From the NCBI GenBank assembly GCA_964016885.1, contig OZ024742.1, forward strand, positions 184,016,001 to 184,080,000: a stretch of DNA of 64,000 bases. The letters run 5' to 3'. The notes beneath the pieces were generated by a model that saw nothing but the letters and a program-made list of their open reading frames with translations, was not told the DNA's origin and searched no databases. Position numbers and translations under genes: made by a program. Shown here piece by piece: positions 657 to 3,372 of this stretch. Position 1 is the stretch's first letter; every line of letters begins with the position of its first letter. The stretch comes from Eledone cirrhosa. Lineage: Eukaryota.

Positions 657-1289
657 TTTTTCATGTGAAATAACATTTATTAAAAAGATTTTCAAAGAAG
701 AAAAAAAAAGCAATGGGATTTGATACCGTTGGTTTTCATGCACATGTACCTCCCTAAATTTAATGCACAGGGAGATTCCATATGAAACTATCCGTCCGAA
801 GGGCCGACAAATATTTTCCACCTTCCAAATGATAATCAGAAAAGAATTGGGTCGACCCGATGCGCTGGTAAAAGACACTTGCTTAAGATATTACTCAGTT
901 GGATCAAATCCGAGACCTAATCATTTCGAAGTGACCTGTTTAATCATTCTGCCATGCAGCGTCTATTACTTACGAATGGGGAAATATACATATATAAGTG
1001 TGTGTGTAAGTATATACATATGTAAGTGTGTGTGTGTGTAAATATATAAGTAAGTACGGTTTCATGAGCCATCAATGGCGGCTCATCTAAATGTATATAT
1101 ATATAAATATATATGTATGTATGTATGTATGTATGTATGTATGTATGTATGTATGTATGTATGTATGTATGTATGTATGTATGTATGTATGTATGTATGT
1201 ATGTATGTATGCATATATACATATATATATATGTGTATATATATATTAATTCAAAATATTAACAAAAAAGAACTTCTTGTGATCAAGTA

Positions 1290-1356
1290 TATTTTATTAT
1301 ACATATTTCAGAGGTACTGAGCTAACTTCAACAGTACGTCCTCATCAGATAAAATA
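1290..1356 (-). ncRNA. Type I hammerhead ribozyme
   Basis: Minus strand: TATTTTAT-CTGATGA-[GGACGTACTG..CAGTACCTCT]-GAAA-T-ATGT-ATA/ATAAAATA. Stem I is 8 bp; cleavage triplet AUA. Confidence 0.8.
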
Positions 1357-2620
1357 AGATGATGCATGACATACCCTGACATAGTAGATGGTTAAGATTC
1401 AGTCATGGTAGTGAGTAAGATATGACAAAACTCAATATTTATATACCTTAATATTGAGACATGAAAAAACTTACATATAATACATATAATACAGAGGGTG
1501 CGTGTGAGAAAGCTTAAAAATACATAACACCAATTTACATAACTGTTAGAGATTCAAATAATTTAAATTATTGAAGAAAGAGGAAAGAAAAAAGCAAGAC
1601 AGAGAGAAAACAGATGAGGGGATAATATAGCTAGAAGAAGTATAGAGAGCAAAACAGAATTGATCAAGGAAAGAGAGACAAAGAGGAATATTTTTTATAG
1701 TGTAAACATAGGGAGGGATGAATTATATATATCTATACAGAACTATACATTTGGGCATAGCTTTGCGAAAGAGTAAACTCGAATCTTTGAATTATTGAAT
1801 TATCTAGAAGTATTCATCAATCTAAATCTTAAATATAACTGGGTGTAATTATATGAAGGTTAATTTCCAGTCCTTAGTTAATTAGTTATATATACTATCC
1901 AAACGTATCCGATTGACCGTTAACTTTCAAATCATTTAAGTTAGTTCAGAGTAATGAATTAATCAAAGTGTATAATATTTCAGGCTATAAAAGTTTATAA
2001 ATATCTGTATTAATATTAAAGTATACTATGATATTTAATTTATAAAATCATATTTTATGAAATCATATTTAAACTATTTGCAAACATGAGAAAGAAGATA
2101 TAATATTTTCATCCTCACGAAGGTAATTCCTATTAAATTTTATTATATTATATTTAATTATTTATATTATATTGAAAATAATTCACATTATATAATTTAT
2201 AAAATAATTACAGTTATCATTTTTAAAATTAAGAATAACAATTAGAATGCCTTAAAGCATCTAAAGGCCTTATAATTAAACTTAAAAAAATATATTATTA
2301 AATTAGATATATGCATTTGTCTAAATATAAACAAAGATATATTGTCTAAAGATTAAGATGATACCTATCAGTTACATATAACATAATACAATACAATAAA
2401 TAAGTTACTGATAATATTGTTAAAAATTAAGGTTTTAGATCAATTATTATAATAGGATCATGTAATACATATATACTATAAATATACAAGTCAAACTTCA
2501 TGAATCATAAGGATAAGAACCAGATTCAAAGTAAAAAATGAAGTGATTGACTGGTTTAAAAATATAGATAATAAGAAAAATCACAAATTCATCCAAATGG
2601 ACATAGCAAGCTATTATTCT

Positions 2621-2730
2621 TCCCGCCGAGGTTGACTTTGCCTTTCATCCTTACGGGGTCGATAAAATAAAGTACCAGTAATGCACTGGGTAATTGCTGG
2701 CCTTGTGCCTAAAGTAGAAACAATTATTCT
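2621..2730 (+). mobile_element. 5'-truncated family A SINE inserted in the PLE RT motif, 8-bp TSD
   Basis: ATTATTCT is duplicated at 2613-2620 and 2723-2730. Removing the insert restores the DIASYYSSITP reading frame. Confidence 0.85.
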
Positions 2731-3372
2731 TCTATTACACCTAACCTATTAAATAAGGCTTTATCTCATGCTTACAAACATACAGCTCTAACTACGGATG
2801 AAATCGATATCATATTAACCGCTAGAAGAACTCTAATTAATTTCAACAATGAGTATTGGACCCGTTCGGATAGGAATAGAAACTTTGACATTACCATGGG
2901 ATCATCGGACTCAGCGCAGGTGGGGATTTTCATCTTAAATATGGTAAATAGAAAACTACCGGAGATTACCGGTGGTTTATATAGGGACGATATTTTATTT
3001 ACGGTTGTCAAACATAGCAATACAGAACTAAATAGGGTTAAGAAAACTATAATTGAATTCTTTAAAAATGACGACCTTAAAGAAGTTCTATTTTTGTTAA
3101 TATTTTAAATTAATATTAATAACTCCGGAAAACCATATCTGTTGAGTGCTTCCAATCTATTGTAAAACTCATTCTTTGATTTATTCATTGAACCTTGTTT
3201 AACCTTTAAATATATATATATATATATATATATATATATATATATATATATATATATATATATATATATATATATATATATATATATATATATATATATA
3301 TATATATATATATATATATATATATATATATACATATATACAGTATATGTGTGTGTATATATACATAGAGGG

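Follow-up and report, generated by a model that had tools for sequence, protein, structure and literature searches.

The window, that is, the whole stretch of 64,000 nucleotides of Eledone cirrhosa DNA analyzed here, is AT-rich and microsatellite-rich and holds two insertions of one PLE family, a long copy (1246-3209) and a short copy (44098-44374), which are both set in (TA)n and have both ends in common (Table 1). In a self-comparison of the window with microsatellites masked, 1246-1412 matched 44098-44264 with 95.8% identity over 167 nt and 3108-3209 matched 44268-44374 with 89.7% identity, in agreement with a first-pass annotation that had described an RT-bearing element and a 280-bp element sharing their ends; masked 1246-3209 gave no other element-specific match in the window. 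Both copies begin with TTAATTCAAAATATT right after (TA)n and finish with TTTAAA, followed again by (TA)n. The left boundary is ambiguous by about 3 nt because ATAT is common to element and target, and this overlap accounts for the slightly different starts (1243 and 44097) given previously.

Positions in the element are counted from site 2, the inversion start (base 1246 = position -1); site 1 lies 96 nt downstream (base 3209). Because the hammerhead is on the minus strand and the RT piece on the plus strand of the long copy, the hammerhead arm is inverted relative to the RT and the 3' end; that the hammerhead segment is inverted from the same starting base in both copies had been stated before and was confirmed. 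The long copy consists of three pieces, namely an antisense 3' UTR arm that reaches -1272, a sense RT core and a sense end that runs from -34 through the tail, with about 6 bases shared at the join between the RT piece and the antisense arm and 2-7 at the join with the tail arm. It has neither the start of the ORF nor the endonuclease and cannot code; it is a dead three-piece composite and not, as first described, a whole element with one inversion. The minus strand at 1700-2000, considered as a candidate endonuclease, is 3' UTR. In the short copy an antisense arm, one untemplated base and a sense arm starting at -8 follow each other. Subfamily markers group the long copy with the ORF-bearing copies L173-L175 and the short copy with the ORF-bearing copies L182, L183, L186 and L188.

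Table 1. Features of the two insertions (positions in the window)
Feature	Positions	Strand	Remarks
(TA)n-type target run left of long copy	1213-1245	.	start approximate; merges into TATG repeat
Tailless arm, long copy: last ~1.3 kb of 3' UTR from site 2 (-1 = base 1246)	1246-2549	-	93.9% to natural copy L121
Predicted type I minimal hammerhead, long copy	1290-1356	-	predicted cut between 1298 and 1297 (position -52)
Initiator-like TCACT	1410-1414	-	base 1412 (position -167) = arm-end pile-up, likely transcription start
TATAAA box	1438-1443	-	31 nt upstream of -167
RT core fragment, non-coding	2537-3087	+	GLYRDD at 2974-2991
Unrelated dispersed SINE-like repeat (100 nt) inside RT piece	2623-2722	+	absent there in L121
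Tail-bearing arm, long copy: last 34 nt before site 2 + 96-nt tail (3114-3209) to site 1	3080-3209	+
(TA)n target run right of long copy	3210-3340	.	end approximate
Tailless arm, short copy: site 2 to exactly -167	44098-44264	-
Predicted hammerhead, short copy	44142-44208	-	core + stems kept; base 17 U not A
Single base templated by neither arm (G on RNA-sense strand)	44265-44265	-	possible copied-cap trace
Tail-bearing arm, short copy: 8 nt before site 2 + tail (44274-44374)	44266-44374	+	followed by (TA)n

Apart from a single dispersed repeat, present in opposite orientation, the flanks of the two copies show no relation to each other; a segmental duplication, the outcome that had been named as counting against the initial description, is therefore not what lies here. 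A young dispersed SINE-like repeat of about 108 nt, 92-100% identical between copies, occupies 12 places in the window (467-574, 2621-2728, 5707-5808, 30602-30716, 31943-32047, 32486-32592, 37286-37355, 37450-37557, 39435-39542, 41702-41809, 43463-43549 and 61786-61889), including the one in the RT piece, which is flanked by a 10-nt target duplication (2613-2622 and 2723-2732). At 3731-3897 there is a near-perfect inverted repeat with arms of about 60 nt around (TA)n, built from another repeat, and a second head-to-head structure follows it to about 4270.

The family and its hammerhead

The genome, of about 3.0 Gb, contains the 25-mer of the inversion start 3,484 times without mismatch, corresponding to at least 3,484 arms. 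A natural copy (L121) was taken as the reference for the family. In this copy (L121/L068) a 750-aa open frame is present, a single ORF that combines RT (GLYRDD) with a C-terminal GIY-YIG endonuclease (LVY...YIG). Along this ORF 189 homologues were aligned at E <= 0.001, the best of them 38% identical; in Pfam the ORF had no family assignment, and of four homologues just one gave an RT match, a weak one. DKG is replaced by DKT (VKSDKTN in 31/35 readings), the RW motif reads RVRW in 23/24, with the next residue mostly R, not K, the CxCX5C linker appears as CNCRNRxxC in most copies, and CxxC and CxH are present as CNLC and CLH; no CCHH was found in the alignment of homologues. A (TA)n run follows 52 of 54 tailless ends and 39 of 40 tail ends. 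The unit measures about 4.6 kb with a 3' UTR of about 2.1 kb and is longer than the elements of the Hydra clade, which are generally under 3 kb, a tendency and not a strict criterion (PMC8557442). Judged by the ORF motifs, the hammerhead and the (TA)n target, the family is a Hydra-clade PLE. Its hammerhead matches none of those in the table of PMC8557442, Hydra-1_oBim included, and sets the family apart from those tabled there, among which it is not listed.

Two further assignments were rejected. A Naiad PLE has an N-terminal endonuclease and is without hammerhead, whereas the endonuclease is C-terminal here and a hammerhead is present; animal non-LTR retrozymes are head-to-tail tandems of short units, whereas here the short copies form head-to-head pairs or stand as single arms. 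At least one further family of Hydra type, close to the insertions or nested within them, is indicated by readings such as CNCRNRVDC and YIGLTANRFK. The 3' UTR of L121 is unusual in its length (~2.1 kb), is AT-rich with weak internal self-similarity, and in this copy holds a fragment of the SINE-like repeat described above.

The hammerhead, predicted on the ORF strand, is of the type I minimal form, with CUGAUGA, a long stem II, GAAA, the palindromic AUAUGUAU forming the stem-loop of stem III, and an 8-bp stem I. The CUGAUGA core is located at 1348-1342 in the long copy and at 44200-44194 in the short copy, in each case on the minus strand. The CUGANGA and GAAA core, the NUH triplet and stems I-III are all recognizable in the sequence, and cleavage is predicted at position -52; the free minimum-energy fold is not hammerhead-shaped. 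Among the 150 of 245 Rfam matches listed there was no hammerhead, only microRNA or snoRNA models on simple repeats. The type I form with a palindromic stem has been described as dimer-dependent (PMC4209133). Among mid-range arm ends 5/78 fall in -54..-50 compared with 3.2 expected, without a clear peak, consistent with a ribozyme that needs a pair for cutting or scarcely cuts. In one locus (L054), the single clear case, both arms end at about -52, the predicted cut, and form a perfect palindrome. The short hammerhead islands of the genome belong to a PLE family, as had been proposed from the window; the link between PLEs and hammerheads is itself already published (PMC4209133; bioRxiv 10.64898/2026.07.22.740005).

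Fixed outer ends and variable inner junctions

A 27-mer covering -168..-142, some 140 nt upstream, was used to select 120 arms. Site 2 is the end point of 82 of them and site 1 of 28, so that fixed-site ends total 110/120; the other 10 end elsewhere, in part via internal deletions. Both sites carry ATAT, matching the (TA)n target, and in ORF-bearing copies the sequence continues from site 1 to an ATG about 65 nt later. Ends also seemed to cluster at +26, just after a hypervariable patch, and this cluster was regarded as an artefact of the alignment. The fixed inversion start is not new but is the known PLE 'tail', which has been described as one-sided (PMC8557442; PMC3846280) and lies between two RT start sites in vitro (PMC11167929).

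When unique head-to-head insertions were counted, leaving out 30 loci picked for their likeness to the short copy, 150/153 combined one tail-bearing with one tailless arm, two were tail/tail and one was tailless/tailless; in a set not chosen by tail the tail/tailless pairing held in 64/65. Two apparent tail/tail pairs, at L190 and L197, were rejected, their arms continuing into the ORF. In addition, 17 lone arms with TA on either side were flagged (10 with and 7 without tail; for the very short L205 and L324 a partner may exist).

Inner junctions are not constant between copies, not even within the 30 that resemble the short copy most, and the insertions measure between 82 and 5,126 bp, their sizes piling up at 415-432 bp; on these grounds a shared deletion is rejected. 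Within the 150 pairs it is the tailless arm that extends further upstream in 97 cases, compared with 28 for the tail arm and 25 ties. A tailless arm that outreaches its partner cannot have arisen by folding back a single tail-bearing strand. Full overlap of the arms is frequent (of 150 tail arms, 94 + 24 pass site 2) and needs either strand displacement or two RNAs. Mapping of the breakpoints across copies, proposed with the initial description, gave a divided result, with the outer ends fixed and the inner junctions scattered. Programmed second-strand priming, suggested at the same time, is upheld in its fixed start but not in its second-strand part, since tailless arms that outreach their partner or stand alone cannot be copies of the partner strand; the inversion start is better read as a second RNA-templated start.

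Two pairs of loci with complex shared junctions were seen (L277/L278 and L279/L280), as well as one simple shared junction. L277 and L278 (C2) have unrelated flanks and in common a complex junction and a private base change, and their outer parts differ in subfamily markers; this may be read as ectopic conversion or re-copying of a composite. Filler at some junctions consists of repeats of the first bases at -167 (ACCATGGT or ACT units), as in L048 (~1764-1842), L144 (~1628-1678) and the junctions of L279 and L280, and resembles reiterative copying at a template end or filler of a repair polymerase.

At both sites a similar motif, RCTC...GTTGAGYGCTT, is present 5 nt beyond ATAT. A 12-bp helix between the tail and the sequence past site 1 was predicted in 17/18 leader folds (z = -2.4), with no covariation (term +0.11). 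If real, this helix would keep the two sites close to each other only in places where the repeat continues into the ORF, which would match the requirement for ORF-proximal RNA in Anolis.

The stop at -167 and the coupling of the arms

An unbiased sample was taken from the first 100 matches listed of the 25-mer on contig C1, from which 97 arms were resolved (manual calls: L365 to -167, L361 and L422 to read-through, L424 kept as short). Among these, 27 end at -21..-156, 21 at -157..-169, none at -170..-204 and 49 further upstream. The 21/70 arms reaching -157 that end within 13 nt compare with 2.1 expected from the background rate (p = 2e-14), and the next 35 nt hold 0/49 ends. The peak lies in an initiator-like TCACT, 31 nt below a TATA box; TATAAA was found at this distance from -167 in 6/9 reference copies, the motif search having failed in two and the box being lost in one.

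Genome-wide, the 26-mer starting at -167 has 1,365 exact matches, preceded by the template base C in 1,009 and by T, G and A in 164, 154 and 38, respectively (356 without the template base). Among 30 loci fetched per letter, those without read-through numbered 3 for C, 30 for G, 25 for T and 27 for A; for the non-template letters 82/90 loci were without read-through and two A cases were internal deletions. G precedes the stop in 154/356, compared with 13/49 at other junctions (p = 0.03), a modest excess. In L1 insertions the cap is marked by an additional G (PMC11702581); 12/30 of the Gs here are templated by the partner arm, which counts against the cap reading. In a rotifer pLTR, too, an initiator-like TCACT comes after a putative TATA box (PMC3846280). 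From these sequence features, position -167 is the likely start of transcription in the upstream pseudo-LTR.

The two arms of an insertion behave alike at this position. Where both reach -157, they are stop/stop in 20 and pass/pass in 17 insertions and mixed in none (Fisher p = 6e-11). Because long partners could lie outside the fetched stretch, 85 loci were mapped from the junction side: the partner end lies within -172..+100 in 73, internal deletions account for two, and TA flank or unassigned sequence for 10, with no long partner in these other 12/85. Subfamily markers are the same on both arms in 51/52 and 35/38 cases, compared with 52% and 26% by chance; gene conversion between arms could contribute to this. 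In one insertion (L329 and L330, C4) both arms carry the same internal deletion between TATA box and -167, an indication that a single template served the two arms.

Among 30 copies selected by the 5' region of the ORF, none starts at -167 and at least 17 pass -200. Full-length copies thus do not seem to arise from linear RNA that begins at -167, and another type of template must be assumed. Several long copies exceed one unit and cross -167 twice without a seam (e.g., L423, L442 and L449), and these need a template without an end there, such as a circle, a read-through multimer or a homology-guided jump; a circular RNA template has been proposed for more-than-unit copies (PMC4209133). A full tandem of two complete ORFs in the same orientation was seen in none of 17 long loci, most of which were read to 10 kb only.

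Proposed mechanism, rival readings and known systems

We consider it probable that an insertion starts twice, two cDNAs being primed from both (TA)n strands on one RNA, and that the short copy is a run-off product at -167. Each insertion would be a head-to-head pair of arms from two fixed sites 96 nt apart; the outer ends are fixed, one arm starts from each site and the ATAT of each site matches the target, as described above. In a Poseidon PLE in vitro, both strands are cut and extended, with internal starts at two sites flanking the tail (PMC11167929). If the sharp stop at TCACT, 31 nt below TATAAA, is the start of transcription, priming in the 5' leader could not yield more than 167 + 263 nt, in line with the accumulation of insertion sizes at 415-432 bp. 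Arms that stop or pass together and have subfamily markers in common would derive from one RNA, the first cDNA being displaced by a second RT in the region of overlap, and joining of the two 3' ends, with trimming, microhomology or filler, would follow. Long copies, that of the window included, would come from a template without an end at -167, for which a hammerhead-made circle, a read-through multimer or a jump to a 3' repeat are candidates. In the long copy of the window the RT piece is joined directly to the tail arm, either a template jump or a later deletion being the probable cause, and the SINE-like insertion would have been acquired afterwards. The short copy would thereby be a sibling product, likely an independent insertion, and not a derivative of the long copy.

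That the short copy is an internally deleted derivative of the long one, amplified as a non-autonomous family of its own, was the first-pass interpretation and is now extremely improbable: the two outer ends in common fit it, and the locus pairs with the same complex junctions suggest that some composites may be re-copied or converted, but one common deletion junction would be expected, whereas the junction varies even among the closest copies, sizes are spread widely, the subfamily markers of the two window copies differ, and the hard stop at -167 in both arms is left without explanation. It is only slightly less improbable that the fixed ends are endonuclease cuts at the ATAT mini-sites of the element during resolution of an intermediate, not RT starts (PMC8557442). 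The resemblance of the ATAT at both sites to the (TA)n target favors such cuts; RT starts in vitro, however, coincide with genomic tail ends in a related PLE (PMC11167929), the RCTC...GTTGAGYGCTT motif after both sites looks more like an RNA signal, and the stop at -167 is again not accounted for. Fold-back of a single cDNA, or a second strand that ends at a programmed site, would agree with the fixed site 2 and with some near-palindromic junctions whose filler is copied from arm ends, and self-priming on an antisense template has been proposed (PMC3846280). The tail arm should then reach furthest, whereas the tailless arm does so in most unequal pairs and in both window copies, and single tailless arms exist, so we regard fold-back as very unlikely.

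Two RNAs, one for each subunit of a dimer and copied from opposite strands, with the sites set by the asymmetry of the complex and -167 being an RT pause or processing site, make up an unlikely alternative that nevertheless has more in its favor. Fully overlapping arms, which count against a single RNA, would need no displacement; a dimer has been predicted for the Anolis protein (PMC11167929), and 3/38 pairs carry different subfamily markers on their arms. Independent RNAs, or a pause, should, however, give mixed stop/pass insertions, of which there were 0/37; TATAAA at -31 and the G excess at the stop also speak against this alternative. An extension of the two-start proposal can be offered only tentatively, since we doubt it more than we believe it: capped linear RNA may give the hammerhead-island stubs, and hammerhead-cut, circularized RNA the seamless more-than-unit copies. 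All copying would begin at two sites in a structured 5' leader, one per target strand, a dimeric hammerhead would cut the RNA at both pseudo-LTRs, and copies derived from circles would rebuild the promoter upstream of the ORF. If true, this would be genomic evidence for a role of the PLE hammerhead and for regeneration of the pseudo-LTR.

If the short copy is a separate run-off insertion, it offers a clue to how PLEs are copied. Thousands of young copies yield three countable rules, namely one site per target strand, a hard stop and arm coupling, which separate the published models of self-priming, endonuclease resolution and circular template and point to RNA ends and constructs worth testing; with the stop at a likely transcription start and the coupled arms, an open question becomes testable. 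The data also suggest that many lone hammerheads in animal genomes are abortive products of PLEs rather than elements in their own right. A literature search, the scope of which did not extend to subscription papers and several supplements, turned up neither 5' run-off nor coupled arms as described features of PLEs.

The element is a new family of a known clade. In LTR elements, strong-stop DNA is a short cDNA that runs off the 5' end after an internal, tRNA-primed start; the proposed run-off cDNA is likewise short, its primer being target DNA and not tRNA. In L1 twin priming (PMC11702581) two target ends also prime on one RNA and an extra G occurs at full 5' ends, but the second site is fixed here and arms overlap extensively. 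Minimal PLE hammerheads and animal retrozymes (PMC4209133, PMC7229834, bioRxiv 10.64898/2026.07.22.740005) are similar in the type I form with palindromic helix III and in the relation of short hammerhead elements to PLE pLTRs; unlike retrozymes, the present islands are head-to-head or single arms without a TATA box and not head-to-tail tandem arrays, and so look like by-products rather than a replicating retrozyme.

The Penelope pLTRs of Adineta vaga (Arkhipova et al. 2013, PMC3846280) share the inverted pLTR, the optional tail and the putative TATA box with TCACT, whereas their head-to-head repeats were put down to antisense self-priming, against which the arm lengths argue here. In PAc, a Poseidon PLE of Anolis (Frangieh et al. 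2024, PMC11167929), two internal RT starts likewise flank the tail at the pLTR-ORF junction, both target strands are extended, the target is AT-rich and hammerhead cleavage is not required; the starts there are inside the ORF and not target-homologous, a point that counts against the two-start proposal, whereas here they precede the ORF and carry the target ATAT, and the available text of that report describes no one-site-per-strand rule, 5' run-off class or arm coupling. With the Hydra clade (Craig et al. 2021, PMC8557442) the family shares DKT, the RW motif, the CxCX5C linker, the C-terminal GIY-YIG without CCHH, CxxC and CxH, a hammerhead near the 3' end, the (TA)n target, inverted 5'-truncated copies and the one-sided tail, and it differs from the families listed there in its unit of about 4.6 kb (1.1-3.0 kb) and its tail of 96 nt (30-40 nt).
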